From the NCBI GenBank assembly GCA_902623545.1, contig CACNUI010000005.1:12622-76621 (forward strand): 64,000 nucleotides of DNA, written 5' to 3'. This stretch comes from an uncultured Alphaproteobacteria bacterium (GTDB taxonomy: Bacteria > Pseudomonadota > Alphaproteobacteria > HIMB59 > GCA-002718135). This document shows, in pieces, positions 29,490 through 44,281 of this stretch. A program made the position numbers and the translations under genes. Position 1 is the stretch's first letter. Every line of letters begins with the position of its first letter. A model generated the notes under the pieces. The model saw only the letters and a program-made list of their open reading frames with translations, made no database searches and was not told the DNA's origin.

Positions 29490-30962
29490 ATGTCTGAAAT
29501 TCAAACCTACAAATTTTATGCAGGAAATAGATGGCATGAACCTTCTTCTGAAAAATATTTTGAAAGTGAGGATCCATCTATAGGCAAAGTATGGGCAAAG
29601 GTCCCTGACTGTAATGAGAAAGATATTAATCTTGCAGTATCATCTGCTAAACATGCTTATTATGATGGTCCTTATGGTAAAATGCATCCAACAGAAAGAG
29701 GGAGAATATTAACTAGAATTGGAGATATTATTGCTAAAAATGCAGAACGCATTGGGCAAATAGAAACTAAAGACAACGGCAAACTTCCAAAAAATATCAC
29801 TCCTTCTTTAACCAGCTGGCAGACTGAGAGTTTTTACTATTATGCAGGCATGTGTGACAAGTATGAAGGTAGATTGATACCTTCAGAGATTCCAAATATG
29901 CATAATTATTTAAAATGGGAACCATTTGGAGTTGTTGCACTAATTCTTCCTTGGAACTCACCAATTGGAACATTAATCTGGAAATTAGCTCCGGCAATAG
30001 CAGCAGGCAATACAGTTGTAATTAAACCTTCAGAAAGAGCATCATGTTCTACATTAGAGTTAATGAAAATTTTAGAAGAAGCTGATCTTCCAGAAGGTTT
30101 AATTAATGTTGTTACTGGTTTTGGTCCTACCACTGGTGCACCTCTTATTGAACACCAAGATGTAAGAATGATAAGTTTTACAGGTGGAACAAAAGGGGGT
30201 AGTGCAGCTAGTTTAAGTGCATCCAAAAATGTTAAACCTATTATTATGGAGCTAGGAGGAAAATCACCACAAATTATATTTAAAGATGCTGATTTAACTT
30301 TATCAGTTAATGGAGTTGTTTCAGGAATTTTTCCCGTTTCAGGTCATAGCTGTATTTCAGGATCAAGAATTTTAGTACATAAAGATATAAAAGATCAATT
30401 TACTAATAATTTATTAGAGGTTGTTAAAAAGGCTAAAGTTGGTCATCCAAATGATACAGCAACGCAAATAGGACCTATAGCAAATAAAGAGCAATATGAC
30501 TTTATTTTATCTAAGATAGAAGCAGCTGAAAAAAGAGGTTTAAAATTATTAATTGATGGTAGAAAAGAACAAAAACCTGAAGGGTATTATATTGGACCAA
30601 CTATTTTTGATAATGTTCCAAATGAAGATGATTTAGCTCAAAATGAAGTATTTGGACCTGTAGCTTCAATACAGACCTGGGAGGATGAAGATCAAGTAAT
30701 TAAAATTGCAAACGATACTATTTATGGGCTTGCAGCAGGTATTTGGACTAAGGATACTAATAAAGCTATACGTTTAGCTGATAGGATAGAGGCTGGAACT
30801 GTTTATATAAATAATTATTTTAATGCTTCTACTCAATCTCCGGTTGGAGGTTTTAAGCAATCAGGATACGGTCGTGAAAATGGATGGGAGGGAATGCAAA
30901 GTTACATGCAGACTAAATCTACTTGGCTAGCTACCAATCCATTTCAACCAAACCCATTTTAA
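29490..30962 (+). CDS. Aldehyde dehydrogenase (betaine-aldehyde dehydrogenase-like by position after the GMC enzyme)
   Basis: 490 aa. LPWNSP, MELGGKSP, GHSCISGSR and NEVFGPV. Same strand as the GMC gene, 49 nt downstream. Confidence 0.8.
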   Translation: MSEIQTYKFYAGNRWHEPSSEKYFESEDPSIGKVWAKVPDCNEKDINLAVSSAKHAYYDGPYGKMHPTERGRILTRIGDIIAKNAERIGQIETKDNGKLPKNITPSLTSWQTESFYYYAGMCDKYEGRLIPSEIPNMHNYLKWEPFGVVALILPWNSPIGTLIWKLAPAIAAGNTVVIKPSERASCSTLELMKILEEADLPEGLINVVTGFGPTTGAPLIEHQDVRMISFTGGTKGGSAASLSASKNVKPIIMELGGKSPQIIFKDADLTLSVNGVVSGIFPVSGHSCISGSRILVHKDIKDQFTNNLLEVVKKAKVGHPNDTATQIGPIANKEQYDFILSKIEAAEKRGLKLLIDGRKEQKPEGYYIGPTIFDNVPNEDDLAQNEVFGPVASIQTWEDEDQVIKIANDTIYGLAAGIWTKDTNKAIRLADRIEAGTVYINNYFNASTQSPVGGFKQSGYGRENGWEGMQSYMQTKSTWLATNPFQPNPF

Positions 30963-30969
30963 GAAGTAA

Positions 30970-31761
30970 TTATTCTTTCCAGTTTGGTTCTCTTTTTTCT
31001 AAAAAAGCTTCAATACCTTCCTTGGAATCATCATGTAACATGTTCTCAGTCATTACCTTTGAAGTAAAAGTATATGCATCTTCTAAATTCATATCTTTTT
31101 GTTTGTAAAAAGCTTCTTTACCAATTTTAATAGTATTAGAAGATTTAGACGATATTTTTTTAGCAATTTGAAATACATTTTCTTTTAAACTATCTTCTTC
31201 AAAGACATCATTTATTAAACCAATCCTTAATGCTTTATTTGCATCTATAAGATCCCCAGTAAGAAGCATTTCCATTGCTTGCTTTCTACCTACAGTTCTT
31301 GATAATGGAACCATTGGTGTAGAACAAAATAATCCAATATTTACACCAGGAGTTGCATATTTTGATCTGCTACTTGAGTAAGCTAAATCACAGCTAGAAA
31401 TTAACTGACAGCCTGCTGCAGTGGCGATACCATCAACCATAGCTATAACTGGTTTATTATTTTTATTAATCTTCAGCATAAGTTCAGAGCACATTTGAAA
31501 TATTTTTTTAAAATAGCTTTCACCTTTGTCATTTCGCAATCTTTGTAAATTTAAATCTTTTAAATTATGTCCTGCACAAAAAATATTACCTTTTGATGAC
31601 AAAATAATTACTTTTACATCATTATCTTTATCAGCAATGTCTAGTGCAGATGTTAATTCATTGATCATGTCTTCGCTTAAAGTATTTTGGTTTTTCTGGT
31701 CATTAAGAATAATATTAAAAATATTATTATTTTTTTCGGTTAATATTAGATTGAAATTCAT
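30970..31761 (-). CDS. Enoyl-CoA hydratase/isomerase (crotonase) family, ECHDC3-like
   Basis: 263 aa. FCAGHNLKDL and VDGIATAAGCQL oxyanion-hole segments. Confidence 0.8.
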   Translation of the reverse strand: MNFNLILTEKNNNIFNIILNDQKNQNTLSEDMINELTSALDIADKDNDVKVIILSSKGNIFCAGHNLKDLNLQRLRNDKGESYFKKIFQMCSELMLKINKNNKPVIAMVDGIATAAGCQLISSCDLAYSSSRSKYATPGVNIGLFCSTPMVPLSRTVGRKQAMEMLLTGDLIDANKALRIGLINDVFEEDSLKENVFQIAKKISSKSSNTIKIGKEAFYKQKDMNLEDAYTFTSKVMTENMLHDDSKEGIEAFLEKREPNWKE

Positions 31762-32208
31762 TTAATTAATTTGAATTTCAACATCTTTGGATAGCGAATT
31801 AGCGATAAAACAATATTTATGTGATCTTTCTTTCATCTTTTTCATTTCTTCATCAGAAATAGTAAAATTATCTTCAAATATTATATCTGGATTTAGTTCT
31901 ATTTTATTTACGTACATTCTTCCTTCTGCATTTTTTCCTAAATACGAAATTGCTTTATCTTTATAATTAACAACGGGCCATTTCATTTTTGCGGCTAAAG
32001 CTAAAAATGTCATCATAAAACAACTACTTACAGCAGCAGCTAGTTTTTGTTCTGGATTAATATTAGTTTCACTTCCTCCATAGTCTGGAGATGATCCTGC
32101 ATCAATAGATACATTTTCATTAAGTATTACTATGTGATCAGTTAAGTATTTACCAAATTCAAGTTTTTTATCTCCTAATTCCCACTTTAATTCGATCGAA
32201 TGACTCAT
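31762..32208 (-). CDS. osmC: OsmC/Ohr-family peroxiredoxin-like protein
   Basis: I trimmed the listed ORF 31762..32256 to the ATG at 32208 (MSHSIELKW...). The longer form would overlap the upstream gene. AAAVSSCFMMTF and KYCFIANSL provide the two conserved Cys contexts. Confidence 0.75.
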   Translation of the reverse strand: MSHSIELKWELGDKKLEFGKYLTDHIVILNENVSIDAGSSPDYGGSETNINPEQKLAAAVSSCFMMTFLALAAKMKWPVVNYKDKAISYLGKNAEGRMYVNKIELNPDIIFEDNFTISDEEMKKMKERSHKYCFIANSLSKDVEIQIN

Positions 32209-32209
32209 T

Positions 32210-33331
32210 TTAAGAATAATTAAAAGGAAGAGAACACACTTTACCTTTTCTCTCAATATTGTCTGGCGTTAATACTATGACATCCTGCCCATCATTCCAA
32301 TAATCTCTATCAACCATTGATAGCCCAATATTAGTTTTTAAAAATGGTGAATAAATACCAGAGGTGATATTACCAATTTGAAATCTATTTTTTGAGTATA
32401 CAGGAAAAGGTATTGAGCATGAAGGAGTAGGCGACCCATCAAAAGTAATTCCTTTTATTTTTTTTTCTATTCCATTTTTTAATATTTTTTTTAGTGCATT
32501 CTTTCCAATGAATTCATGAGATAAATTGCTACAATAATTATTAAATCCACATTCAAGTGGATTATTTTCTAAAGTAAATTCATTACCATAGGATAGTAAA
32601 CCACCTTCTATTCTATCAATTAAATTTGGACATCCAGGTGAAATATTAAAATCTTTTCCTGCTTCCCAAATAGTTTCCCAAAGTTTTTTTCCTAAACTAA
32701 AACCTTTAAGATAAATCTCAAAACCATCTTGTTTGCTATACCCTGATCTTGCAATTATCTGCTTTGTTCCTTCAAATTCAAAAAAAGAAAAATGAAAGAA
32801 TTTTAATTTTTTTATTTTTTCGCCAAATATTGAAGACATTAATTCTTCAGATTTCGGACCTTGAATTGCTAGGGGATAAACATCTGGTTCAATAATATCA
32901 ACTTTAAAATTTCTCCCTACTGCCAATCCTTTTGCCCAAAGAAGAACATCTGAATCTGCAACTGATAGCCAATATTTATTTTCACTTAATCTTAAAAGAA
33001 CAGGATCATTTATCATTCCTGCATTTTCATCAATCATTGGATAATAGTAACACTTACCAATAGGCATATTTTTTATCGACCTTGGAGACATGAGTTGTAT
33101 TAATTTTGTAGCATCTTCTCCTATTATTTGAACCTGTCGTTGACATGAAACATCCCAAATTTGAGTATTTTTAGATAAGTGCCAATAATCTTCTTCTACT
33201 GTTGCTTTATATGATTTTGGAAGAAGCATATGATTAACTACAGTAAAACCACTTACACCAGCCTCAATTACTTTCTCGGTATAGGGAGTCCTTCTAATAC
33301 GTCTAGACATGTTTAATCCTGAATTACTCAT
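32210..33331 (-). CDS. dmdA: GcvT-family tetrahydrofolate-dependent demethylase, DMSP demethylase (DmdA)-like
   Basis: About 373 aa from the ATG at 33331. ATGs at 33361 and 33310 are alternatives. SRRIRRTPYT...VVNHMLLP...EDYWHL...IWDVSCQRQV...ARSGYSKQDGFEIY...IEGGLLSYGNE resembles my recollection of Pelagibacter DmdA. Confidence 0.6.
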   Translation of the reverse strand: MSNSGLNMSRRIRRTPYTEKVIEAGVSGFTVVNHMLLPKSYKATVEEDYWHLSKNTQIWDVSCQRQVQIIGEDATKLIQLMSPRSIKNMPIGKCYYYPMIDENAGMINDPVLLRLSENKYWLSVADSDVLLWAKGLAVGRNFKVDIIEPDVYPLAIQGPKSEELMSSIFGEKIKKLKFFHFSFFEFEGTKQIIARSGYSKQDGFEIYLKGFSLGKKLWETIWEAGKDFNISPGCPNLIDRIEGGLLSYGNEFTLENNPLECGFNNYCSNLSHEFIGKNALKKILKNGIEKKIKGITFDGSPTPSCSIPFPVYSKNRFQIGNITSGIYSPFLKTNIGLSMVDRDYWNDGQDVIVLTPDNIERKGKVCSLPFNYS

Positions 33332-33332
33332 T

Positions 33333-33668
33333 TTATTTAGACCACCATATTGAGTATCCATTCGGAGAAATAATCAAAGGTATGTGGTATTTTTTGAGAG
33401 GATCTTTCATTTTAAATTTAACACTTATTGAATTAATTATTTCACTAGTATTTCTAAAATATTTACCAGAATTAATTATCATTTCATAATCACTTTCACA
33501 ATCCTCTTTCGTTAATTCAAGTTCTTTAAGCATTCTTCCAGAACCATCTGTTTTATCTTCTAGAAATATAACCTTGTTATTACTATTTACTTTATAAATA
33601 ACAATTTCTACATCACTTGCATGCGTACCATCGATTGCGTTTAATAAATGTGTAGAAAAAATTGCCAT
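33333..33668 (-). CDS. Transthyretin-fold protein (5-hydroxyisourate hydrolase family) with a non-canonical C-terminus
   Basis: 111 aa. N-terminal STHLLN, GSGRM and YHIPLIISPNGYS match the HIUase His/Arg/His positions, but the protein ends IWWSK instead of YRGS. Confidence 0.65.
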   Translation of the reverse strand: MAIFSTHLLNAIDGTHASDVEIVIYKVNSNNKVIFLEDKTDGSGRMLKELELTKEDCESDYEMIINSGKYFRNTSEIINSISVKFKMKDPLKKYHIPLIISPNGYSIWWSK

Positions 33669-33671
33669 AAT

Positions 33672-35414
33672 TTACTCTATTGATGCTTTATCTCTTTTAT
33701 CACTAACTGCAGCAACTATTGGACTAATAACACCTTTAGCCTTAACATTAACACATGCAGTTTTACCACTTTCTAATGCTCTTTTTAAAGCAGGACCTAA
33801 ATCTTCTCTTTTAGTCACTAATTCTCCATATCCCCCAAAACCTTCAAAAATTGAATGAAATGGAATATCTCTAAAATCAGTTGCAAAGTGTTTCCCACTT
33901 TCAAATAACCTTTCTTGTTGTTGAGAAATACAGTCAAGACCTCCGTTGTTATCTATAACTACAACAATGGGTCTTTTTTCTTGGAATGCAGCCTCAATTG
34001 ATAATCCTCCAGATAAAAATGCACCATCTCCACTTATTAAAACTACATTAGATTTAGGATTAAGATTTTTTGCTGATACTGCAAAAGGAACTCCAACACC
34101 TAACATACTAAATGTTCCAGGATGTAATATTCCCCCAAGTTTTTTTCCTTTTGATCCAGCAATATTAATTGCAATCTCAGACCAGAAATGTGTGTTACCG
34201 CCATCAATAACTAACCAGTCATTTTCAGTTAATACTTCTTGAACATCTAAAGCTAACTGAAGAGGATGAATTTTTCCACCACTTTTTTTGGTCTCTTCAG
34301 TTTCTTTATATAAGTCATCTAATGTTTTATTGATCCAATTTTTTTTCTCTGTTTTATTCTTTTCAAACCATTCATTGTTTAATTTCCATTTACTGTTTTT
34401 CTTTAACTCTGTGAGTTTATCCAAAAAAACTCCAGGATCACAAAGTAAGTTAATATCTGCAGCTCTATTTAATTCTATTTCTTCATGTGATCCATTAATA
34501 CAAACAAGTTTAGTACTTTTTGGAAAAAGTGGAGGATTACCAAAATTCATTTGATTATCAAGACGTGCACCAATCATAAGAACCAAATCTGATTCACTGA
34601 GAGCCATTTTTGATGGAGGATATTGATGTATATCTGCCAGACCCATGTATGTATCTGCTTCTTCGCCTAAAAGCTTTTGATGGTATGGTATATTAAATAT
34701 TGGAATATTTAATTCAAAACCAGCTTGCTCTAATTTTTTTTCTGCATTAGACCACCAAACACCATGCCCTCCAATAAAAACAGGTTTTTGTGCACTAATT
34801 GCCAGATCAAATATTTCATTTAAATTCTCAGGATCTGGCCAAGCTTTTGCTAAAGGTTTTTTTTGATGAGTAAACGGTCTTTCTTCTAAACCTGCATCAT
34901 CTGCAAATGATGAAAACATTATATCTACTGGTACACTTAAATGTACTGCACCAGGATAACCATTTGTTGCAATTCTATATGCTTTATCTACGAACTCTCT
35001 TATTCTGTTGCCATCTGTTATACTTGCACTGTATTTTGTTAACGGTGCTGCAATAGATACATCATCTATTTCCTTAAAACCGCCTGCTCCTTGTCTTTTT
35101 AAGCTACTTGATCCAGTTATAAAAATAACAGGTGATCTTTCACCCCATGCTTCCATCATTGAGGGTACTGCATTTGCAAAACCCTCTGGCCCGACTATAC
35201 AAACGGATGGTTTTCTTGATATTCTAGTATGACCATCAGCTAAATGACCAGCAATTTGTTCATGAGGACAATTAATTACATTAATTTGACACTCCATAAA
35301 TCCTTCAAGTGCTGGATTACAAAAACCTCCAGAAAGTGTAAAGACATTATCAATACCTTTATCCTTGAGAGCTCTTGCAACTAATGCCCCACCTCTAATC
35401 TTTTTATCTCCCAT
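33672..35414 (-). CDS. Thiamine-diphosphate-dependent enzyme (acetolactate synthase / oxalyl-CoA decarboxylase / 2-hydroxyacyl-CoA lyase superfamily)
   Basis: 580 aa. PHEQIAGHLADGHTR (catalytic Glu), ITGSSS...FKEIDD and the GDGAF...NNGG ThDP-binding motif. Confidence 0.8.
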   Translation of the reverse strand: MGDKKIRGGALVARALKDKGIDNVFTLSGGFCNPALEGFMECQINVINCPHEQIAGHLADGHTRISRKPSVCIVGPEGFANAVPSMMEAWGERSPVIFITGSSSLKRQGAGGFKEIDDVSIAAPLTKYSASITDGNRIREFVDKAYRIATNGYPGAVHLSVPVDIMFSSFADDAGLEERPFTHQKKPLAKAWPDPENLNEIFDLAISAQKPVFIGGHGVWWSNAEKKLEQAGFELNIPIFNIPYHQKLLGEEADTYMGLADIHQYPPSKMALSESDLVLMIGARLDNQMNFGNPPLFPKSTKLVCINGSHEEIELNRAADINLLCDPGVFLDKLTELKKNSKWKLNNEWFEKNKTEKKNWINKTLDDLYKETEETKKSGGKIHPLQLALDVQEVLTENDWLVIDGGNTHFWSEIAINIAGSKGKKLGGILHPGTFSMLGVGVPFAVSAKNLNPKSNVVLISGDGAFLSGGLSIEAAFQEKRPIVVVIDNNGGLDCISQQQERLFESGKHFATDFRDIPFHSIFEGFGGYGELVTKREDLGPALKRALESGKTACVNVKAKGVISPIVAAVSDKRDKASIE

Positions 35415-35415
35415 C

Positions 35416-36579
35416 TTAATACTTTATATCCTTAAAAATTTTCTCTGCTATAATTTTTTTATCAACTTCATTTATATCGGTTAATCCTACTAAGCCAAGA
35501 TTTGTACTTAACTCCTCTTTAATTAAGTTGATAATTCTTCGAAGACCTCTTGCACCATCCGCACCAATGGCGTACATTAAAGGTCTGCCAAACATAACAA
35601 AATCAGCTCCTAAAGCTAATGCACGTAAAATATCACTACCACTTCTAATACCACTATCAAAAAGTATTGGAAAATCATCTCCTAAAGCTTTTCGAATTAA
35701 TGGTAAGGCATTAATAGAAGCAGTAGCACTGTCTAATTGCCTTCCTCCATGATTAGATACTTGAATTGCATCAGCACCAGCCTCTTTAATTTTTAAGGCA
35801 TCTTCAGAATTCATTACTCCTTTAATTATTAATTTTCCCTTCCATACATTTCGAATTCTTTTTAGAGTATTCCAATCAGTTGATCCTCTACTTTCTTTTC
35901 GTCTAAAAACTTGATCACCGCTTTTAGAAGTAACGTAATTCATTGGTTGCGGAGCTCCTTTTAATAAAGTCGTTAAACTCCATTGAGGATGTAGTGCAAA
36001 ATCTAAAAATTGTTTTGGACCTATTTTAAATGGATAGCCAAAACCATTTCTGTCATCTCTTGCTCTCCTTGAAAGAATAGGTACATCAACAGTAAGAATT
36101 AAAACTTTGTATCCAATATTTTCTGCTCTTTTTAATAATTCCATAATAAATTCTTCACTTTGAAAAATATATATTTGCATCCACGAATGACCTTCTGAAA
36201 AAGTAAACATATCTTCAAGTGTTGTACTAGATGCCATTGAAACACATGTTGGAACATTATTATAAACACTCTCTTTTGCTATCATTTTATCTGCTTCAGG
36301 CCATGAAAGATTTGTCATTCCCATTGGAGCAAACCCAAATGGATAATCAAATTGAAAATCAAATATTTTTTTACTTAAATTTCTATTCTCAACATTTCTG
36401 AAAACCTTAGGCTCAAGTCTAATTTGATCTAATGCTGTACTATTAATTTCAGCAAGTTTATCATCTCCTGATGCCCCATCAATAAAATCAAAGACTAGTT
36501 TTGGTAATCTTTTTTTAGATAACCTTATAGCATCATCTATAGTATGGATCTTAGTACTAGGTTTAATGACATCATTCAT
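35416..36579 (-). CDS. FMN-dependent alpha-hydroxy acid oxidase/dehydrogenase (LldD / glycolate oxidase / lactate monooxygenase family)
   Basis: 387 aa. LTVDVPILSRRARD, SNHGGRQLD and FDSGIRSGSD motifs. Confidence 0.85.
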   Translation of the reverse strand: MNDVIKPSTKIHTIDDAIRLSKKRLPKLVFDFIDGASGDDKLAEINSTALDQIRLEPKVFRNVENRNLSKKIFDFQFDYPFGFAPMGMTNLSWPEADKMIAKESVYNNVPTCVSMASSTTLEDMFTFSEGHSWMQIYIFQSEEFIMELLKRAENIGYKVLILTVDVPILSRRARDDRNGFGYPFKIGPKQFLDFALHPQWSLTTLLKGAPQPMNYVTSKSGDQVFRRKESRGSTDWNTLKRIRNVWKGKLIIKGVMNSEDALKIKEAGADAIQVSNHGGRQLDSATASINALPLIRKALGDDFPILFDSGIRSGSDILRALALGADFVMFGRPLMYAIGADGARGLRRIINLIKEELSTNLGLVGLTDINEVDKKIIAEKIFKDIKY

Positions 36580-36627
36580 TTTAGTATTTGTATTCTAATA
36601 TAATTTATAATTCTATTACAAAATATA

Positions 36628-37857
36628 CTAGTTTTTTGACGTACCCTTCCAAGGTATTGGGCTAGATGGAATATCTGTTTTTATACCTCTTTGTATTTCA
36701 CCTTTCTCATCATACATTGGTAAAGTACAGATTTCACCTTTTTGCAGGCTACCATCATCACATCTAACATCTATTATTGTGCCTGGTCCAAATTCTGCAT
36801 GATACATATGAACTATAGCAACACCACAAACTTGAAATGGCGACCATGTGCTTGAAGTTACAATACCCACTTTTTTATTATTAATAGAGATTTCAGAGTC
36901 AACTAATGCAAAACTATTTTCCACTCTCATTCCCCAAGTTAAACAATCCTTACTAGCGTTGAGTAAATATTCTCTACCAATGAAATCACCTTTATTAAAA
37001 TCTATAAATTTTCCTAACCCAACTGCAAATGGAGATCTATCTTTTGTAAAATCTCTACCTGCAGATAAAAGACCTGCCTCTATTCTTCTACATCTAAATC
37101 CAGGTGAAGCTGTAAGGATCATTCCCATATCTTCACCCTTACTGAGTATTAAGTCCCCAATTTTTTTTGAGTCATTTTGTGGTCTTAAATAAATTTCCCA
37201 ACCTAGTTCATTGGTAAACCCTGTTCTGCTTATAATTACTTTTTCTGAAGCAATTGAAGTTTCAATCCAATCAAAATAATTAAAACTATCTTTTATTGGT
37301 TGATCAACGAGTGTTTCTAAGAGCTTAAGAGATTTTGGACCTTGAACTTGGCTTACCCATACATTTGGATCTTTTATTTCGACATTTAAGTTTTTTGAAT
37401 GAGCTTTGTACCAACTATATAAATGCCCATCACCTTGAGCAAACCAAAATTTGTTTTTTTCTAATCTTAATAATAATCCATCTGAAATCATTCCTCCATC
37501 ATGATAGCAAGCAAATTGATAAGAACATCTTCCAATTTTAACTTTTGAAATATCTCTAGGAAAAATTTGTTGAAGTAAATTTTCAGCATCTAAACCAGAT
37601 ATTTCGTATGGATGCTCACCTGTATGACGTAAAATTATTTCTTGTCTAGCCTTCCAATACATTTCATCTGCTGTAGCATGAGATAGTTTTTCGAGTGTAA
37701 ATCGACCATCAGCATAATTAGTATATTCAGGACTAAATGGTAATTCTTGATAAGTTAGTGGATGTATTTTCATTGGTCTTGCTAAATCAAGCGATCTACC
37801 AATCTCCTTAACAACAGGCTTAACAACAAATCTGTAATTTTTAACTGAGTCTTCCAT
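36628..37857 (-). CDS. GcvT-family aminomethyltransferase-fold protein (stand-alone demethylase, substrate unknown)
   Basis: 409 aa. GRCSYQFACYHDGGMISDGLLLRL, SRTGFTNELGWEIY and RIEAGLLSAGRDF follow the GcvT fold pattern. The N-terminus differs from the DmdA-like paralogue. Confidence 0.7.
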   Translation of the reverse strand: MEDSVKNYRFVVKPVVKEIGRSLDLARPMKIHPLTYQELPFSPEYTNYADGRFTLEKLSHATADEMYWKARQEIILRHTGEHPYEISGLDAENLLQQIFPRDISKVKIGRCSYQFACYHDGGMISDGLLLRLEKNKFWFAQGDGHLYSWYKAHSKNLNVEIKDPNVWVSQVQGPKSLKLLETLVDQPIKDSFNYFDWIETSIASEKVIISRTGFTNELGWEIYLRPQNDSKKIGDLILSKGEDMGMILTASPGFRCRRIEAGLLSAGRDFTKDRSPFAVGLGKFIDFNKGDFIGREYLLNASKDCLTWGMRVENSFALVDSEISINNKKVGIVTSSTWSPFQVCGVAIVHMYHAEFGPGTIIDVRCDDGSLQKGEICTLPMYDEKGEIQRGIKTDIPSSPIPWKGTSKN

Positions 37858-37902
37858 AAATAAATAGTATTTTATGTAACATAAATAAAAGAAAAAAAAC
37901 TT

Positions 37903-38826
37903 TTAAAATAATTTGCTTAAAGCTTCAATATGTCGTGGTTTAACTTCACAACATCCACCAATTAAAGTAGCTCCTTCTTTTATAGAATTAGATACAAAGT
38001 TTTTATATTCTTTTAATCCATATTCTTGATCTCTTGTTCCAAGTAATTCTACTGGATCTTCATACTCAGCTTGTCCTTCAAAACCCTCCGTATTGAATGT
38101 TTTTTGATCACTAGTTGGTAATCTTTTAAATAAGTTCATTTTATATCCAAACGGGAGTTTTTGTTTTTTGAGAATTGGAATACTCAACTCAACAATTTCG
38201 GGAGATACACAAGCAGAGATTATACCACAACAATTATACTGATTAATAATTTTAAAAAGATCTTCAAGTGCTTCTCCTGAAGGTAATTTACCATCAAAAC
38301 GTAAATGAGCGCCAACTAGTATTTGTTTATTAAACTCTTTAGATGCTTCTAAAGCGATTTGTATTTCCTTAATAGAACTTAAAACATCTAAATAAAATAT
38401 ATCAACGTAGTCATTTAATATTTTTGCAACCTCAAAGAAATATTTAAACATAGTTTCTTCTGTCTCAAATTGCATAGGAGAATAAGTATTACTCTGATTG
38501 GGCAAAGAACCCGCAACTATAGTTTTCTTATTACTTTCTAATTTTGCCTTCTGCGCAATCTCACCTGCAGATCTAATTCCAAATTCTAATGAGTCTAATA
38601 AATTATATCTTTTTAATAACCGTCTTCTAACACTAAAATTTGCTGTAACAATTAGTTCAGATCCTGCATTAATAAAATCTTTGTGCATTTTTAGTACCAT
38701 ATGATGTAAATTTTTATCTATAAGCGCTTTTGCAGACCATAAATCACCATAAGTATCTAAACCCATTTCCATTAAAGTTTGGCCAGAACCACCATCAAAT
38801 AGGTATTTGTTATTATTTAAAAACAT
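37903..38826 (-). CDS. Homocysteine S-methyltransferase domain protein (betaine- or S-methylmethionine-homocysteine methyltransferase candidate)
   Basis: I trimmed the listed ORF to the ATG at 38826 (MFLNNNKYLFDGGSGQTL) because a GC-rich hairpin occupies the longer 5-prime extension. GGCCEVKPRHIEAL is the zinc-binding CC motif. Confidence 0.75.
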   Translation of the reverse strand: MFLNNNKYLFDGGSGQTLMEMGLDTYGDLWSAKALIDKNLHHMVLKMHKDFINAGSELIVTANFSVRRRLLKRYNLLDSLEFGIRSAGEIAQKAKLESNKKTIVAGSLPNQSNTYSPMQFETEETMFKYFFEVAKILNDYVDIFYLDVLSSIKEIQIALEASKEFNKQILVGAHLRFDGKLPSGEALEDLFKIINQYNCCGIISACVSPEIVELSIPILKKQKLPFGYKMNLFKRLPTSDQKTFNTEGFEGQAEYEDPVELLGTRDQEYGLKEYKNFVSNSIKEGATLIGGCCEVKPRHIEALSKLF

Positions 38827-38850
38827 TATTGAAAATTTAAGAGAAAATAT

Positions 38851-38872
38851 GTGGCGCAATGTTATGCGCCAC
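38851..38872 (-). terminator. Intercistronic GC-rich stem-loop after the SBP gene (8-bp stem GTGGCGCA / TGCGCCAC, 6-nt loop)
   Basis: Read directly from the sequence. On the minus-strand transcript it is preceded by U8 and followed by AUAUUUUCUCUU. Confidence 0.5.
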
Positions 38873-38888
38873 AAAAAAAATTAGAGGT

Positions 38889-40517
38889 TTATGCAAACCA
38901 CCAACGTTCAGAAATTTTGTTACCATCACTTTCCCAGTTTCCAGCAACATCATCTTTGTGAGCAAGTTTTTTAGAACCAGCTCCAACATATTGGTTAAAT
39001 GCATAAACAATAGCACCACCATCATAGTTACAAAGTGCTTGAGCTTCCCAGTACATTGATTTTCTTTTTTCAAAATCAAGTTCTGATCTTGCAGATCTAA
39101 CTAATTCGTTGAAACGCTTAGTTGAATCTGTTTGCACAATATTACCCCAAGCAGCTTCATTCCACTCAGTGTCATCGGTAAACGCAGCAGACCACATCAT
39201 ATCTTCTGTAGGTCTTCCACCCCAAGAACTCATACTGAATCCTTTGGTGTTCCATACGTTACTCCAGTATCCATCTTCAGGTTCTTTCTTAACTCGAAGA
39301 TCAATACCGCATTCTTGAGCAGAAGCAGCAATTAAGTTAGTTGCATCTGTACAACCTGCATAAGGTACTTCAGAAGTACTAATCTCAATTGGACCACTCA
39401 CACCTGATTTCTTCCAGTGATATGCAGCTTTATCAGCATCAAACTCTCTTTGCTCTAAAGCGCTATTATGGAATGGGTGAGCTGTTGCAATGGGATGATC
39501 ATTACCTAATGAACCATATCCAAGCATGATCTTATCAACAATTTCTTGTCTTTTAATTGCAAACTTCATTGCCATACGAACATCAAAGTTATCAAATGGT
39601 GGAACATTTAATCTCATTGGAGCTGTATAGTGAGCATAACCAGATGCTGCAGTAATTTCTACATTAGGATCTCTAGTTAATAAATTTGCAGTTCTTAGAT
39701 CAACACCGTTCATCCAATCAATTTCACCGTTTAATAATGCTGCTTGTCTTGTAGCAGGATCATTGATTCCGATTACTTCAACTGAATCGAAGTGCGCAAC
39801 GCTATCACCTTTGAAATAATTTGGATTTCTTTTTCCAAACTTTGCACCAACACCAGGATTGAATTCATCCATAATATATGGACCAGTTCCAATTGTAGAT
39901 TGTGCATCTACAACTCCGTCTTTAGTTGGTTTAATCATTATGTGATAGTCAGTTGTAATCGCTGGCCAGTCCGCATTAGCACCTTTAAGTTTAAATATAA
40001 CTCTATTAGCACCATCAGCTGAGATCGTATCAATTTGCGATAATAAACCTCCTGCTGCTGAAGCAGTGTCTGGATTCATATGATACTGATAGTTAAGTAC
40101 AACATCTTCAGCAGTCATTGATTTGCCATTGTGGAATTCAACACCTTTTCGAAGATTATATACCCAAGTTTGAGCATCATCTGACTCAATTGACTCAGCA
40201 AGTTCAGGTACAATACTGTGATCAGAATCAACAACTGTTAAACAGTTTTGAAATGACCATGCTGTAGCTTGCATGAACGAGCTTTGATAAGTTGCAGGAT
40301 CAAGTGTATCTGTAGTATCAGCTGCACCATTACCCCATCTAAAATGTCCGCCTTTTTTTGGAGTAGCAGCAACAGCTTTATCAGCTAGTGATAGAGCTAT
40401 TGGTAGAGTTACACCAGTTGCAAGAACAGACATCATGAACTGTCTTCTATCAATTAGCCCTTTAGTGAGCTTTGAAGACTGCTCTTTAATATATTTGTCT
40501 ATTTTCTTATCTTTCAT
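38889..40517 (-). CDS. ABC transporter substrate-binding protein, family 5 (peptide/nickel/opine type), Tat-like signal
   Basis: 542 aa. N-terminal DRRQFMMSVLATGVTLPIALSLADKAVA, followed by a typical SBP_bac_5 body. Preceded by an AGGGAGGA SD. Confidence 0.8.
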   Translation of the reverse strand: MKDKKIDKYIKEQSSKLTKGLIDRRQFMMSVLATGVTLPIALSLADKAVAATPKKGGHFRWGNGAADTTDTLDPATYQSSFMQATAWSFQNCLTVVDSDHSIVPELAESIESDDAQTWVYNLRKGVEFHNGKSMTAEDVVLNYQYHMNPDTASAAGGLLSQIDTISADGANRVIFKLKGANADWPAITTDYHIMIKPTKDGVVDAQSTIGTGPYIMDEFNPGVGAKFGKRNPNYFKGDSVAHFDSVEVIGINDPATRQAALLNGEIDWMNGVDLRTANLLTRDPNVEITAASGYAHYTAPMRLNVPPFDNFDVRMAMKFAIKRQEIVDKIMLGYGSLGNDHPIATAHPFHNSALEQREFDADKAAYHWKKSGVSGPIEISTSEVPYAGCTDATNLIAASAQECGIDLRVKKEPEDGYWSNVWNTKGFSMSSWGGRPTEDMMWSAAFTDDTEWNEAAWGNIVQTDSTKRFNELVRSARSELDFEKRKSMYWEAQALCNYDGGAIVYAFNQYVGAGSKKLAHKDDVAGNWESDGNKISERWWFA

Positions 40518-40533
40518 TTGTCCTCCCTTTTAT

Positions 40534-40559: not shown

Positions 40560-40708
40560 TAATTTCAAGAAATTTAACAAAAAACAAACTTAAGTTATTT
40601 AACATACAAACATATAAATTATTTAAATTCAACGGATAATTTGTGAAATTTTGGTTGCATAATAGCCTAATTAAGTAATAACAAAATTGAAATATAAAGG
40701 AGGATAAA

Positions 40709-41707
40709 ATTAGCCAAATTCACCCAATATTTAGAACAATTTTTTTAAGAATTGGACTTGGATTAATTACTGTATTTGCTTTTTCAGTAATTATTTTTAG
40801 CTGTTTTTCTTTTTTGCCAGGAGATTTTGCAACTGAGATTCTTGGACAATCTGCTACAAAATCTTCTGTTGAGGCTCTCAGATCTGAATTAGGTTTAGAT
40901 AAACATCCTATTCCAAGATATTTTGAATGGCTATCTAATGTATTTCAAGGAGATTTTGGAAGTTCTTTCTCAGGCAGATCTAAAGTGCAAGGTGACCAAG
41001 GAGATAGATCAAGACTTGTCGTTGAACTAATTATTCCCAGGCTTAAAAATACACTTTTTTTAACTGGAGTCAGTGCTCTAGTGGCAATACCTCTAGCATT
41101 ACTTCTTGGTATTTCAGCTGCATTATACAGAAATAGCGTTTATGATAGATCGGCAACTGGTTTTAGTTTAGTTACTGTTTCTTCTCCAGAGTTTTTTACT
41201 GGTTATATTTTTATACTTTTATTAGCTACTTTATTTCCAGTTTTTCCTACAATAGCAAATGTTAATGAAGACACATCATTAATTGAAAGGTTTTATTTAA
41301 CTGCTTTACCAGTATTTACTCTAACACTTGTAACAATGGGCCATATGATGAGAATGACTCGGTCAGCAATAATAAATATTTTATCAAGTGAATATATTGA
41401 AATGGCAAAATTATCTGGTGCTACCAGATATGAAGTAATTGTAAAACATGCTTTACCTAATGCTTGGGCTCCAATTGCTCAAGTCATAACTATTAATCTT
41501 GCCTACATGTTAATTGGCTCAGTTGTTGTTGAGTTTGTATTTAATTATCAAGGAATAGGAAGGCTAATGGTTGGATCCGTTTACAATAGAGATATTCCAG
41601 TTGTTCAGGCTTGCGCTTTAATATTTGCATCAACTTATGTTATTTTAAATTTACTAGCTGATTTGATTGGAATAATTTCAAACCCTAGACTTTTGTATCC
41701 AAAATGA
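40709..41707 (+). CDS. ABC transporter permease (DppB/OppB-like), probable ATT start
   Basis: The listed ORF starts at TTG 40814 and lacks TM1. The frame is open from the TGA at 40688 and encodes ISQIHPIFRTIFLRIGLGLITVFAFSVIIFSCFSFLPGDF. AAGGAGG at 40697-40703 lies 5 nt before ATT 40709. Confidence 0.7.
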   Translation: MSQIHPIFRTIFLRIGLGLITVFAFSVIIFSCFSFLPGDFATEILGQSATKSSVEALRSELGLDKHPIPRYFEWLSNVFQGDFGSSFSGRSKVQGDQGDRSRLVVELIIPRLKNTLFLTGVSALVAIPLALLLGISAALYRNSVYDRSATGFSLVTVSSPEFFTGYIFILLLATLFPVFPTIANVNEDTSLIERFYLTALPVFTLTLVTMGHMMRMTRSAIINILSSEYIEMAKLSGATRYEVIVKHALPNAWAPIAQVITINLAYMLIGSVVVEFVFNYQGIGRLMVGSVYNRDIPVVQACALIFASTYVILNLLADLIGIISNPRLLYPK

Positions 41708-42627
41708 GTGATAATACACAATCATATTCAGCAAAAGGTGAGGTTAGTAGTATAACTAAAAGAAGAACTAGATTTGAGAGAATAAAAATAGCATTTTCTA
41801 AAGCTCCCTTATCTGCTTGGTTTGGAATGATTGTACTTTCTATCTATCTTTTTGCTGCATTCTTTGCTCCATTTATTGCGCCACATGGCGAAGCAGAAGT
41901 TTTCCCAGTTGCGTATGCGCCATGGGGTGGAGAACACTTATTAGGAACAGATCAAATTGGAAGGGATATTCTTTCTAGATTAATCTTTGCTTCAAGAAAT
42001 ACACTAGGAATTTGCTTCTTAGCCTGTACGATTGCTTTAATTATTGGAACAATATTTGGAATAATTGCAGCAATAGATAGAAGTTATATTGATCAAATCT
42101 TAAGCAGATCAATTGATACTTTAATGGCAATTCCTGTAATGATTTTTACTTTTATTCTTTTATCAGTTTTTGGACCAAGTAATTTGAATTTAATTTTAAT
42201 TTTAGGGGTATTAGAATCTACAAGATTTTTTAGAATTTCAAGATCTGTAGCTGTTGGTCAAGTTGTATTAGAATACGTTGAGGTAGCTAAATTAAGAGGA
42301 GAAAAACTTTCATATATTATTTTTAGAGAAATTCTTCCTAATATAGCATCTCCTTTGATAGTTGAATTCGGTGTAAGATTTATCTTTATTATTTTCACTG
42401 TTTCAAGTTTAAGTTTTTTAGGCTTAGGCATACAGCCACCAGCAGCTGATTGGGCTGCTATGGTGAGAGAAAATGCAATATTAATTCAATATGCCCAATA
42501 TGATATTACCGCAGGATTAACTCCACTAATACCTGCTGCAATAATTGCATTATTAGCTCTTGCAATTAACTTCGTGATTGATTGGTATTTGTACATTACA
42601 AGCGGTTTAAAAGATGACATCAAATAA
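41704..42627 (+). CDS. ABC transporter permease (DppC/OppC-like)
   Basis: 307 aa. HLLGTDQIGRDILSRL and an EAA-like loop. Overlaps the upstream gene by 4 nt. Confidence 0.85.
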   Translation: MSDNTQSYSAKGEVSSITKRRTRFERIKIAFSKAPLSAWFGMIVLSIYLFAAFFAPFIAPHGEAEVFPVAYAPWGGEHLLGTDQIGRDILSRLIFASRNTLGICFLACTIALIIGTIFGIIAAIDRSYIDQILSRSIDTLMAIPVMIFTFILLSVFGPSNLNLILILGVLESTRFFRISRSVAVGQVVLEYVEVAKLRGEKLSYIIFREILPNIASPLIVEFGVRFIFIIFTVSSLSFLGLGIQPPAADWAAMVRENAILIQYAQYDITAGLTPLIPAAIIALLALAINFVIDWYLYITSGLKDDIK

Positions 42628-44227
42628 TAAAAAAGAACTTCTTTTAGAAATGAAAAATATTCATATTGATGGATTTTCAGATGAGAGATGGCATAAAATA
42701 TTAAAAGGGGTTGATCTAAATTTATACAGAGGTGAAATTTTAGGTTTAATTGGAGAAAGCGGTGCTGGAAAATCGACCATGGGAAAAGCAGCAATGGGTT
42801 ATACTCAACCAGGTTGCAAAATTATTAAAGGTGAAATAATTTTTAATGGTACTGATCTTGCTAAGCTCACAGAATTTGAAAAAAGAAAAATCTGGGGTAC
42901 TAAAATTTCATATGTTGCTCAATCAGCAGCAGCATCTTTTAATCCTGCACACAGATTAATGGATCAAACAATTAGTGCAGCTAATAGAGCAAAAATTAAT
43001 CCTACTGACGTATTAAGAAAAGATGCAGTCCAACTTTATGAATCACTACAACTACCAGATGCCGAAAATATTGGAGAGAGATATCCTCATCAAGTCTCTG
43101 GTGGTCAATTACAAAGAATTATGACTGCTATGGCTATGTCACCAAGACCAGAACTTATAATTTTTGATGAACCAACAACTGCACTTGATGTTACTACTCA
43201 AGTTGAAGTTCTGTCTGCTATGAGATCAATAGTAGATAAATTTAATACTGCTGCAATTTATATTACTCATGATTTAGCTGTAGTTGCTCAAATGGCTGAT
43301 AGAATTAAGGTTCTTAGATATGGAGAAGAGGTAGAAGAGTCTAAGACAAAAGACATGCTTTCAAATCCTAAAGAAGAATATACTAAATCACTATGGTCAG
43401 TAAGATCACTAATAAAGCCTGAAGAAACAAATGATGATTATATGTTGTCCATTAAAAATATTGATGCAGCTTATGGTTCATCAAAAGTTCTTCATGATGT
43501 TTCTGTAAATATTCCTAGAGGTAAAACTGTAGCAATAGTTGGAGAAAGTGGATCAGGAAAATCAACAACTGCAAGAGTAATAACTGGCCTACTACCTCAA
43601 ACCAAAGGAGAAATTATTTTTGATGGAAAAAAATTATCTCCTAAACTTGAGCAAAGATCAAAAGAAGAATTAAGAAGAATTCAAATAATTTTTCAAATGC
43701 CTGATACCGCAATGAATCCTAAACAAACTGTTGATGAAATCATTGGGAGACCAATTGAATTCTACCATGGAGTAAAAGGAAAAGAACGTGAGACTAAAGT
43801 AATTGATTTGTTAAAAATGATTGAACTAGATGAAACGTTTTTAGATAGATTGCCATCTGAATTATCAGGAGGCCAAAAACAAAGAATTTGTATAGCTAGA
43901 GCTTTAGCTGCTAATCCAGATCTAATTATTTGTGATGAGGTTACTTCAGCATTGGATCAAATTGTTCAAGAGGGAATTTTAAAACTGTTACAAAAACTTC
44001 AAAAAGATCTTGGCGTAACTTATATTTTTATTACTCACGATATTGCCACTGTTAAAGCCATTTCGGATGAAATAGTTGTTATGTATCAAGGTAAAGTAGT
44101 TGAGCAAGGCTTAAAAAGTAAAATTTTAAACCCTCCACACCCTGATTATACTGAGTTGTTATTATCTTCAGTTCCAGAAATGGATCCCGATTGGCTAACA
44201 AATCTTTTAAATAAAAGATCAAACTAA
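42614..44227 (+). CDS. Fused double ATP-binding protein of the Dpp/Opp type (DppD-DppF-like)
   Basis: 537 aa. Two Walker A motifs (GESGAGKST, GESGSGKST), two signature motifs (VSGGQLQR, LSGGQKQR) and two Walker B motifs. Confidence 0.9.
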   Translation: MTSNNKKELLLEMKNIHIDGFSDERWHKILKGVDLNLYRGEILGLIGESGAGKSTMGKAAMGYTQPGCKIIKGEIIFNGTDLAKLTEFEKRKIWGTKISYVAQSAAASFNPAHRLMDQTISAANRAKINPTDVLRKDAVQLYESLQLPDAENIGERYPHQVSGGQLQRIMTAMAMSPRPELIIFDEPTTALDVTTQVEVLSAMRSIVDKFNTAAIYITHDLAVVAQMADRIKVLRYGEEVEESKTKDMLSNPKEEYTKSLWSVRSLIKPEETNDDYMLSIKNIDAAYGSSKVLHDVSVNIPRGKTVAIVGESGSGKSTTARVITGLLPQTKGEIIFDGKKLSPKLEQRSKEELRRIQIIFQMPDTAMNPKQTVDEIIGRPIEFYHGVKGKERETKVIDLLKMIELDETFLDRLPSELSGGQKQRICIARALAANPDLIICDEVTSALDQIVQEGILKLLQKLQKDLGVTYIFITHDIATVKAISDEIVVMYQGKVVEQGLKSKILNPPHPDYTELLLSSVPEMDPDWLTNLLNKRSN

Positions 44228-44281
44228 TTAATCTAATTAAAAATACTTGAAAATATTTTAAATTTATTATTTATATTTTTT

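Follow-up and report, generated by a model that had tools for sequence, protein, structure and literature searches.

The window analysed here, a stretch of 64,000 nucleotides from an uncultured alphaproteobacterium (assembly GCA_902623545.1, contig CACNUI010000005.1, positions 12,622 to 76,621), carries a run of six minus-strand genes, four of which belong to a module that is found from SAR11 to Gammaproteobacteria and for which the literature search gave no earlier description. These four encode a flavin mononucleotide (FMN)-dependent dehydrogenase, a thiamine diphosphate (ThDP)-dependent enzyme, a transthyretin-fold protein (TTR), and a DmdA-family demethylase whose primer sites place it in dmdA clade C. 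The deepest unit is the ThDP gene with the TTR gene, nearly always accompanied by the FMN dehydrogenase gene (FMNdh), and a DmdA-family gene is a frequent fourth member. The remaining two genes of the run, encoding an OsmC-family protein and a crotonase, are an add-on in one SAR11 clade, but they also form a separately conserved pair.

Counts of dmdA genes are the standard proxy for marine dimethylsulfoniopropionate (DMSP) going to methanethiol versus climate-active dimethyl sulfide, and in oceanic counts no more than one other dmdA subclade rivals C/2 in abundance (PMC13360808). A literature search, much subscription literature being outside its reach, returned no paper that joins dmdA to transthyretin, acetolactate-synthase-like, or lactate-dehydrogenase-like neighbours. 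It is on balance probable that the module serves one pathway in which a 2-hydroxy or 2-oxo carboxylate is tied to demethylation of a methyl-onium compound. The best explanation of the locus as a whole, held with a little less than even confidence, is that two conserved pieces stand within a larger catabolic block and serve a route for an organosulfur 2-hydroxy acid.

Conservation and organization of the module

The six open reading frames (ORFs) are listed below in gene order. Their coordinates and families were proposed by a first-pass annotation made from the sequence alone, and both are borne out by the ORFs, Pfam, and NCBIfam.

35416..36579, minus strand: FMN-dependent (S)-2-hydroxyacid dehydrogenase, predicted membrane type (MdlB/LldD-like), first core gene (Pfam FMN_dh, E 2e-118)
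33672..35414, minus strand: three-domain ThDP-dependent enzyme of a narrow subfamily, the most conserved module member (TPP_enzyme_N/M/C)
33333..33668, minus strand: transthyretin/5-hydroxyisourate hydrolase (HIUase)-fold protein, 'WWS' subtype, 111 aa (Pfam Transthyretin PF00576, E 5e-19)
32210..33331, minus strand: DmdA-family tetrahydrofolate-dependent demethylase, assigned to dmdA clade C (near C/2) (GCV_T and GCV_T_C; NF009133, 532 bits against a cutoff of 410)
31762..32208, minus strand: OsmC-family protein, VCA0330-like (Pfam OsmC; closest PDB relative 2d7v)
30970..31761, minus strand: crotonase-fold protein of ECHDC3/PRK08139 type (ECH_1; PRK08139, 368 bits against a cutoff of 313)

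The sequence of the window is the same as that of a 110-kb contig in the single-cell assembly GCA_902532825.1, and close relatives of its proteins bear the labels Pelagibacterales or Pelagibacteraceae. When one genome per GTDB species was searched with the ThDP enzyme as probe, relatives turned up in at least 531 genomes; gene order in SAR11 was analysed for the best 80 of these (81-98% identity), all from Pelagibacterales. The order FMNdh-ThDP-TTR-DmdA occurs in all 80 loci wherever the contig reaches far enough, and two clades can be told apart by what surrounds it. Loci of the window's clade (43 loci) read SBP5-HMT-GcvT2-FMNdh-ThDP-TTR-DmdA-OsmC-ECH, where SBP5 is a solute-binding protein of the SBP_bac_5 family, HMT a homocysteine S-methyltransferase family protein, GcvT2 a second GcvT-family protein, and ECH the crotonase, followed by a convergent aldehyde dehydrogenase (ALDH) gene and a glucose-methanol-choline (GMC) oxidoreductase gene. 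The second, Ia-like clade (37 loci, including cultured HIMB1709 and Uisw_090) has a thiolase gene in place of OsmC-ECH, sometimes followed by a class IV aminotransferase gene. GcvT2 is an upstream companion of the core in both clades, HMT is found in the window's clade and two Ia-like loci, and OsmC follows DmdA in the window's clade only.

Outside SAR11, the tetrad stands in the same order in Pelagibius sp. Alg239-R121 (locus L108), beside a convergent tripartite ATP-independent periplasmic (TRAP) transporter and a LysR gene. Arenicellales bacterium nBUS_48 and a related metagenome-assembled genome (MAG) carry it with a D-2-hydroxyacid dehydrogenase gene before it and genes for a short-chain dehydrogenase/reductase, a glutathione S-transferase, and a TauD-family protein after it. 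An SBP5-type ABC transporter leads into the tetrad of a 2.6-Mb MAG (L112), where MR_MLE and DAO family genes follow. A 372-kb contig (L117) holds the tetrad with LysR, an SBP5 ABC system, and PhyH, and a Rhizobiales MAG (L119) holds it with LysR, SBP5, a gamma-butyrobetaine hydroxylase (GBBH)-like dioxygenase, and EamA; the SBP5 of the latter is a 46%-identical ortholog of that in the window. TRAP genes lie in or beside the module operon in L108, L113, L115, and two SAR11 loci. The first-pass annotation had named conservation of gene order as the check on its proposal, and the adjacency is not unique to the window's genome, the four central genes being conserved across the 80 SAR11 loci and in Alpha- and Gammaproteobacteria outside SAR11.

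Membership of the module varies at its downstream end. The trio FMNdh-ThDP-TTR occurs without a demethylase in L115, as the single operon LysR-DctPQM-FMNdh-ThDP-TTR, and in L113, where a 379-aa ORF occupies the demethylase position; this ORF is unrelated and not a GcvT protein. Approached from the demethylase side, three of four sampled relatives of the Pelagibius DmdA have ThDP-TTR directly upstream, one of the three lacking an adjacent FMNdh, and the fourth (L118) has no trio. The first-pass annotation had treated all six genes as one coupled unit, and this view has to be divided: the evidence splits into a core of FMNdh-ThDP-TTR, usually with DmdA, and the clade-specific OsmC-crotonase pair.

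The spacing of the six genes agrees with the earlier reading of the junctions to the letter. These are TAA-G-ATG (35416/35414), TAA-ATT-ATG (33672/33668), TAA-A-ATG (33333/33331 and again 32210/32208), and TAAATG (31762/31761), so that the gaps are 0-3 nt throughout. Same-strand gaps in the window (39 junctions; GC ~0.30) have a median of 3 nt, with 56% at 3 nt or less, and the chance of five successive junctions of 3 nt or less at one given place is ~0.06. Because such gaps are typical for this genome, they are weak evidence of coupling, and tight spacing was dropped as a proof of it. The non-SAR11 genomes with the module have a GC content of 0.49-0.65, and their module genes overlap by 4 nt or lie 3-47 nt apart; since these GC-rich genomes keep the module tight, spacing is more meaningful there than in SAR11.

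Transcription signals add little to this picture. The single weak consensus terminator match within the six genes (35145-35130) lies inside the ThDP gene, total matches equal the shuffle expectation, and consensus promoter matches are rarer than in shuffled sequence, which makes the promoter scan uninformative. A search for riboswitch control (SAM-V type) gave no Rfam match that reached the gathering score anywhere in the window, and in 36400-41000 there was none even at E<=1. As a possible operon, the six genes are consistent in strand and spacing, show no convincing internal terminator, and are conserved in order for four of six members. The minus-strand run extends upstream of the FMNdh gene to GcvT2 (48-nt gap), HMT, and SBP_bac_5.

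Properties of the encoded proteins

The FMN enzyme scores below all NCBIfam equivalog cutoffs (LldD, 230 against 550 bits; L-lactate oxidase, 162 against 645; PRK11197, 274 against 376), and the named families that it matches best are LldD-like. The catalytic residues Y137, D165, R172, K253, H277, and R280 are invariant in eight module orthologs. Its closest full-length PDB relative, (S)-mandelate dehydrogenase 6bfg, aligns with it end to end, through the membrane-binding segment 'LHPxWSL', and the alignment to 6bfg runs unbroken through 'ypfkigpkqfldfalhpqwslttllkgapqpmny', in the region of the ~40-residue membrane-binding insertion, which is kept in all eight orthologs. In MdlB-type enzymes, this segment is the membrane anchor, and enzymes of the MdlB/LldD type pass electrons to the respiratory chain and react poorly with O2. 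Judged by these alignments, the FMN enzyme is a membrane-type dehydrogenase and not an H2O2-forming oxidase. The assignment undercuts the suggestion of the first-pass annotation that OsmC defends against peroxide made by such an oxidase.

The ThDP enzyme is unusually constrained, its module orthologs in SAR11, Pelagibius, Arenicellales, and the MAGs being 66-84% identical. Among 1.84 billion representative proteins, full-length relatives appear at 69, 48, and 35% identity, followed by a generic background of ~30%; it is because so few stand above that background that the enzyme is regarded as a narrow family. The closest PDB relatives are 2-hydroxyacyl-CoA synthase and lyase (HACS, HACL), oxalyl-CoA decarboxylase (Oxc), and benzaldehyde lyase, at ~30% identity (8vzc ~30%). 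All NCBIfam families score below cutoff, including those for Oxc/HACL (NF058623, 243 against 600 bits; NF006721, 201 against 557; TIGR03254, 186 against 739), with the actinobacterial HACL model third best. In membership tests, the enzyme falls outside Oxc/HACL, acetolactate synthase (ALS), and glyoxylate carboligase (Gcl). The last gives a 96-bit partial match restricted to the N-terminal 360 residues (2pan/8i01), and the cofactor-activating Glu, which Gcl characteristically lacks, is present in the window enzyme ('PHEQIAGH').

More distant relatives of the ThDP enzyme keep other company. Those at 33-49% identity never occur with TTR or FMNdh partners, and those at 33-42%, which lack the module, sit beside sarcosine-oxidase-like, aminotransferase, and GMC genes and are weakly informative on function. 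Paralogs at 33-39% identity (metagenome loci L092, L100, L089) lie beside subunits resembling heterotetrameric sarcosine oxidase (SoxA, SoxB, and SoxG-like) and a class III aminotransferase, which constitutes a second context for this branch of the ThDP superfamily.

The TTR gene directly follows the ThDP gene in every locus examined. Against the HIUase equivalog TIGR02962, the protein scores 69.1 bits, below the cutoff of 87.45. The HIUase residues His7, Arg45, and His95 are invariant in the alignment of module TTR proteins, and the C-terminal Y-R-G-S, which lines the HIUase active site, is absent from every one of them, the window protein ending in ...GYSIWWSK. The motif W-W-S is present in seven of eight module orthologs across classes, extended to Y-S-x-W-W-S in SAR11, Pelagibius, Arenicellales, and three MAGs. 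By these sequence characters, the WWS proteins constitute a distinct subfamily. They are probably hydrolases or binding proteins whose aromatic tail recognises an onium head group; we infer that a tryptophan pair in the channel would be well suited to hold a sulfonium or quaternary ammonium group by cation-pi interaction.

The demethylase passes the DMSP demethylase equivalog model NF009133, as do its module orthologs of L059, L077, L108, and L109 (528-580 bits), and the canonical HTCC1062 enzyme, 3TFH, scores 637. NCBI names the Pelagibius module copy DMSP demethylase. Identity to 3TFH, the characterised clade D enzyme, is 43-49% for module DmdA proteins (48% for the window copy) and 45-50% across the 80 SAR11 loci, and module proteins of different classes are 52-71% identical to one another. 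Subclade-specific quantitative PCR primers of Varaljay et al. 2010, taken from Table S4 of PMC6309047, were located in the module genes. The C/2 pair has 0+0 mismatches in seven SAR11 loci (L070, L071, L073, L074, L075, L077, L081) and 2+3 mismatches in the window, at the expected spacing and with a 192-bp amplicon; each of the other six pairs has at least 11 total mismatches in the window. It is this match of the C/2 primer sites that assigns the module demethylase to dmdA clade C. An initial reading as true canonical DmdA, drawn from the NCBIfam score, was qualified by the low identity to 3TFH and then replaced by clade C on the strength of the primer sites.

An alternative ATG at 33361, used by the public gene call (383 aa), would overlap the TTR gene by 29 nt, and the 3TFH alignment begins at residue 1 of the 33331 start, which favours the 373-aa form. 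The DmdA enzymes cited as characterised belong to clade D (3TFH) and clade A (PMC5395565, PMC13360808), and no biochemical characterisation of a clade C DmdA was found in the literature searched. No AMP-binding ligase or acyl-CoA dehydrogenase (dmdB/dmdC) occurs among the annotated genes between ~17.4 and 62.8 kb of the window, nor in the SAR11 loci; an acyl-CoA dehydrogenase was found only in L118 among the loci examined.

The OsmC protein keeps both Cys, its 'SSCFMM' and 'KYCFIA' segments aligning with the Cys of 2d7v, and misses all subfamily cutoffs. Of the 25 PDB matches of the crotonase at E<=1e-25, human ECHDC3 (2vx2) is the closest, and no DmdD chain occurs among them. Gln and Gly appear to occupy the two catalytic Glu positions in both the window crotonase and its L118 ortholog, a lead that depends on an alignment with the active-site segment of rat enoyl-CoA hydratase. 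DmdD itself keeps both catalytic Glu (PMC5395565). The apparent replacement of the Glu residues, together with the absence of DmdD from the PDB relatives, makes DmdD-type hydration by this protein unlikely.

Evidence that the two genes belong together comes from L118, a 7.8-Mb genome of 65% GC, in which positions 1-3192 hold an acyl-CoA dehydrogenase-ECH-OsmC-thiolase cluster whose OsmC and crotonase are 44% and 48% identical to those of the window. A DmdA-clade gene is only a few genes away, and no FMN enzyme is encoded close to the cluster, which argues that OsmC goes with the crotonase and acyl-CoA chemistry and not with a flavin oxidase. In HTCC1062, an osmC gene is the most strongly induced under sulfur limitation, with S-adenosylmethionine riboswitch control in common with bhmT (PMC5069961); this regulation offers an independent link between OsmC-family proteins and the organosulfur and methyl metabolism of SAR11.

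A candidate route and its alternatives

As the first-pass annotation had stated, the enzyme set cannot be mapped to a described pathway, and the three core enzymes beside the demethylase have no place in the known DMSP route. Of the three ideas it offered, oxidation of a 2-hydroxy acid carrying a sulfonium or methylthio group fits best, without the DmdD-like hydratase step that formed part of it and is now weakened. The equivalog pass of DmdA in every lineage, together with the C/2 primer sites, leads to the expectation of a sulfonium methyl donor. TRAP transporters import carboxylates. The minimal operon LysR-DctPQM-FMNdh-ThDP-TTR and the lack of a CoA ligase or CoA transferase in the conserved core favour a free 2-oxo acid as the substrate of the ThDP enzyme. 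A D-2-hydroxyacid dehydrogenase directly upstream in Arenicellales fits a 2-oxo acid as shared intermediate, and the distant ThDP paralogs also count in this direction, lying beside oxidases and aminotransferases that make 2-oxo acids or aldehydes.

The proposed route would be built of two pieces. The first would comprise FMNdh, ThDP, WWS TTR, and usually clade C DmdA, normally placed by a TRAP or SBP5-ABC importer and often by a LysR gene; the second would comprise OsmC and the apparently Glu-less crotonase, which elsewhere accompany an acyl-CoA dehydrogenase and a thiolase. A 2-hydroxy carboxylate bearing a dimethylsulfonio or methylthio group would be imported, the best candidates being 4-dimethylsulfonio-2-hydroxybutyrate (DMSHB) and its demethylated counterpart, 4-methylthio-2-hydroxybutyrate (MTHB). 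The FMN enzyme would oxidise the 2-hydroxy acid to the 2-oxo acid and pass electrons to the respiratory chain. The ThDP enzyme, with the WWS TTR protein as an obligatory partner, would decarboxylate the 2-oxo acid to a C3 aldehyde that is then oxidised to an acid, DMSP or methylmercaptopropionate (MMPA), much as MdlB, MdlC, and ALDH act on mandelate. ALDH is the candidate for the aldehyde-to-acid step.

Clade C DmdA would move one S-methyl group to tetrahydrofolate either before or after chain shortening, which gives two possible routes. In one, DMSHB would pass through its 2-oxo acid to DMSP and then, by clade C DmdA, to MMPA; in the other, DMSHB would become MTHB and then 4-methylthio-2-oxobutyrate, one transamination from methionine, before decarboxylation towards MMPA. 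The product would enter an acyl-CoA branch, represented by OsmC-crotonase here and by thiolase in other SAR11, and yield reduced sulfur and one-carbon units, both needed by SAR11. The trio without a demethylase (L113, L115) would be a DMSHB-to-DMSP system. SAR11 is known to require reduced organosulfur (PMC5069961). In most bacteria, non-producers of DMSP included, DMSHB is turned into DMSP by enzymes that await identification and are believed to be widespread, and DMSHB may be a prominent compound in seawater (PMC11306096). DMSHB or MTHB specifically as the substrate is a doubtful identification, derived from chemical logic only.

Several observations weigh against this route. The demethylase is a frequent but not an obligatory partner, as the trio without it in L113 and L115 and the L118 DmdA relative without the trio attest. 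The nearest relatives of the ThDP enzyme are the CoA-ester-using HACL and Oxc and not the classical 2-oxoacid decarboxylases, the crotonase appears to lack the catalytic Glu needed for DmdD-type hydration, conservation of ALDH is confined to the window's clade, and the route gives the TTR protein no defined step. Stereochemistry is a further difficulty. Enzymes of the FMN_dh family as a rule accept only the L-(S)-isomer, and algal DMSHB is reportedly the D-isomer (Summers et al. 1998).

The alternative that survives best, though unlikely, is alpha-oxidation on CoA esters, in which an iron/2-oxoglutarate (Fe/2OG)-dependent dioxygenase (PhyH/GBBH-like) would 2-hydroxylate an onium acyl-CoA, the HACL-like ThDP enzyme would cleave it to formyl-CoA and a shorter aldehyde for oxidation by ALDH, and the crotonase and thiolase would act on CoA esters. 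The structural relatives of the ThDP enzyme and the rank of the actinobacterial HACL model speak for such chemistry, as does the recurrence of PhyH/TauD-family dioxygenases near the module (window 44282-45112 and 24872-26011; L117, L119, L109). CoA-dependent genes (crotonase, thiolase, CoA_transf_3) stand by the module in three lineages, and a 48% paralog of the ThDP enzyme, P0123, adjoins a 4HBT thioesterase gene. Set against these are the width by which the HACL/Oxc cutoffs are missed, the absence of the dioxygenases from L108, L112, L113, L115, and L116, and the universally conserved FMN dehydrogenase, which would be left without a role. CoA activation is also missing where it would be expected: CoA_transf_3 lies five genes upstream only in Arenicellales, and the minimal operon of L115 has neither ligase nor transferase. 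The related suggestion of the first-pass annotation, a ThDP enzyme of the oxalyl-CoA decarboxylase or 2-hydroxyacyl-CoA lyase kind working with the crotonase, was right about the closest solved relatives and is weakened by the same low identity, sub-cutoff scores, and lack of a CoA-activating enzyme in the core.

Somewhat less probable again is the idea that clade C DmdA is an ordinary DMSP demethylase isozyme and that the trio works on some common carboxylate of no relation to it, such as L-lactate by way of pyruvate to an acetyl unit or acetoin, the two being co-located by shared regulation or chance. The DmdA proteins do pass the DMSP demethylase model, the trio and DmdA each occur without the other, and the FMN enzyme is LldD-like in its best named families. 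The ThDP-TTR-DmdA order, however, persists in Alpha- and Gammaproteobacteria whose flanking genes differ greatly, and in the absence of a functional link this would be difficult to account for. The score of the FMN enzyme also falls far under the LldD cutoff, and a lactate route needs neither a dedicated ThDP enzyme of such conservation nor a modified HIUase.

Genome streamlining alone, which would pack unrelated genes head to tail, accords with the short gaps of the window and with the substitution of thiolase for OsmC and crotonase in other SAR11. Conservation in genomes that are not streamlined refutes it for the four-gene core, and the conserved L118 pair near a DmdA homolog weakens it for OsmC-ECH, so that as a general explanation it is very improbable. 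A purine/ureide or glycolate/glyoxylate route would make the TTR protein an HIU hydrolase, the ThDP enzyme a glyoxylate carboligase, and the FMN enzyme an oxidase of glycolate or ureidoglycolate. It draws on the retained His/Arg/His of the TTR protein and on the part that members of each of the three families play in ureide or glyoxylate metabolism, but it is the least credible and is rejected here together with the glycolate/glyoxylate proposal of the first-pass annotation, given the lost Y-R-G-S and sub-cutoff TTR score, the weak partial Gcl match with its Glu in place, and the absence of any uricase, 2-oxo-4-hydroxy-4-carboxy-5-ureidoimidazoline decarboxylase, allantoinase, or xanthine dehydrogenase gene from every module locus.

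The consequences of the organosulfur 2-hydroxy acid route would reach beyond this locus. Clade C dmdA may conceivably be not a stand-alone DMSP demethylase but the first or last step of a new pathway for DMSHB or another sulfonium 2-hydroxy acid, acting with FMNdh, the ThDP enzyme, and a re-tooled HIUase-fold protein, although this must be considered doubtful. If true, it would supply the sought-after, widespread 'DMSHB decarboxylase' activity of bacteria that do not produce DMSP, a new function, catalytic or in binding, would be added to those of the transthyretin/HIUase fold, and some of the dmdA signal counted in the ocean would report a different substrate flux. The module implies one of two things: a branch of the demethylation pathway, upstream or to the side, that has gone unrecognised, or the use of another sulfonium compound by clade C. 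The interpretation of dmdA counts changes in both cases. The module is a concrete candidate for the widespread DMSHB-to-DMSP activity (PMC11306096), and the question becomes directly testable with cultivable carriers such as Pelagibius sp. Alg239-R121 and 'Ca. Pelagibacter' HIMB1709 and Uisw_090. Two uncharacterised protein subfamilies are also defined, namely the WWS transthyretin-fold proteins and the ThDP enzyme conserved across bacterial classes.

Surrounding genes and comparison with known systems

The features that flank the six genes in the window are the following.

29490..30962, plus strand: convergent aldehyde dehydrogenase (Pfam Aldedh, E 6e-158)
36628..37857, minus strand: GcvT2, second GcvT-family protein (GCV_T and GCV_T_C; below all equivalog cutoffs)
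37903..38826, minus strand: homocysteine S-methyltransferase family protein (Pfam S-methyl_trans, E 2e-38)
38850..38873, minus strand: terminator-like G+C-rich hairpin between the SBP and HMT genes (9-bp stem, 6 GC pairs, T-run)
38889..40517, minus strand: SBP_bac_5 solute-binding protein of the divergently encoded ABC transporter (Pfam)
40814..45112, plus strand: divergent ABC permeases and ATPase, then a PhyH-family Fe/2OG dioxygenase (Pfam)

ALDH follows ECH in every locus of the window's clade that reaches that far, and GcvT2 is 25-31% identical to the module DmdA proteins. The hairpin is a strong one and could be an attenuator that gives a high ratio of SBP to enzyme expression; it matches no Rfam family. 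A PhyH-family dioxygenase gene is attached to an SBP5-type ABC transporter both in the window (44282-45112) and in the GC-rich L117 (14028-14891), which suggests a hydroxylation step in the same system.

On the side of transport, the TRAP genes of the SAR11 loci L054 and L055 fall in the same 40%-identity clusters as those of Pelagibius (L108), the same importer type thus occurring in distant lineages. At 1e-20, no PDB relative turned up for the TRAP binding protein, and for SBP5 the relatives are all distant ones of Ni/peptide type. A gene of the peptidase S51 (dipeptidase E/cyanophycinase) family lies between GcvT2 and FMNdh in the Ia-like SAR11 clade (L045-L081, e.g. L059 8156-8845), and, with the peptide-type SBP5 transporter, it hints at a conjugate as the imported compound. 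Beside DmdA-clade genes, an MTTB-family methyltransferase gene recurs in three non-SAR11 lineages (L108 16523-19062, L118 9310-11783, L112 1-721), paired in L108 and L118 with an ApbA/ketopantoate-reductase-like gene.

Further out in the window, a GBBH-like TauD dioxygenase (24872-26011), an EamA transporter, and a 272-aa protein with no Pfam match (26927-27745) travel with the block across the window's clade, and the GBBH-like dioxygenase and EamA are also near the tetrad in the Rhizobiales MAG L119. A carnitine-type set occupies 48163-52940, with a ScfR/XRE-M78 regulator (48163-49602), a Zn-ADH-like reductase (49599-50606), a 3-hydroxyacyl-CoA dehydrogenase (50609-51538), a beta-keto acid cleavage enzyme (BKACE, 51540-52430), and a 4HBT thioesterase (52473-52940). 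Together with the GBBH-like dioxygenase, the region from 22 to 53 kb reads as an island for methylated onium compounds. It is followed by a polyamine catabolism cluster (53533-61928) that encodes an agmatine deiminase (PAD_porph), an N-carbamoylputrescine amidase (CN_hydrolase), a Pot-type ABC transporter, a glutamine-synthetase-like gamma-glutamyl-polyamine synthetase, and a DAO oxidoreductase; a PAD_porph gene is also found at the edge of the Arenicellales module locus L109. Positions 1-20000 have a GC content of 0.21-0.25 versus ~0.30 elsewhere, and NAD-dependent sugar epimerase/dehydratase genes lie at 17389-18360 and 21161-22120. This part has the look of a hypervariable SAR11 island for cell-surface glycosylation at the edge of the catabolic region.

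Among known systems, the closest in its demethylase is DMSP demethylation by DmdA, DmdB, DmdC, and DmdD or AcuH, as in Ruegeria pomeroyi and 'Ca. Pelagibacter ubique' HTCC1062. Both have a tetrahydrofolate-dependent demethylase of the DmdA family that passes the equivalog model, both occur in marine Alphaproteobacteria including SAR11, and in the window a crotonase-fold gene lies downstream of the demethylase. The module differs in that its demethylase is assigned to clade C, its crotonase is ECHDC3-like, the annotated window has no DmdB or DmdC, and nothing in the known pathway corresponds to the FMN dehydrogenase, the ThDP enzyme, or the TTR protein.

The mandelate pathway of Pseudomonas putida (MdlB, MdlC, MdlD) offers the nearest parallel for the first two steps, with a membrane-type FMN dehydrogenase followed by a ThDP enzyme of the ALS-like superfamily and, in the window's clade, an ALDH nearby. 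The ThDP enzyme of the module is not MdlC, its best relatives being HACL, Oxc, and benzaldehyde lyase at ~30%, and its substrate is unlikely to be aromatic. A demethylase and a TTR protein are added, and there is no racemase, save for the MR_MLE family gene after the tetrad in L112. HIUase (PucM/TLP) of urate catabolism shares with the module protein the transthyretin fold, a size of ~111 aa, and the His/Arg/His residues; unlike it, the module protein has Y-R-G-S replaced, scores below the cutoff, lacks a purine-catabolic context, and is always encoded after a ThDP gene in an operon.

Peroxisomal alpha-oxidation (PhyH, HACL1, ALDH) and bacterial HACL, HACS, and Oxc resemble the module in the nearest solved relatives of its ThDP enzyme and in the PhyH-family and ALDH genes nearby. 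They differ from it in the identity of only ~30%, the missed cutoffs, the lack of CoA activation in the core, and the presence here of an FMN dehydrogenase for which alpha-oxidation has no need. Finally, DsyD, the DMSHB decarboxylase domain of DsyGD from Gynuella sunshinyii, would, should the DMSHB hypothesis hold, share with the module the conversion of DMSHB towards DMSP. It consists of one ureidoglycolate-lyase-like domain (PF04115; PMC11306096), unrelated to the module proteins, and it is biosynthetic and rare, whereas the module stands in a catabolic context and is very widespread.

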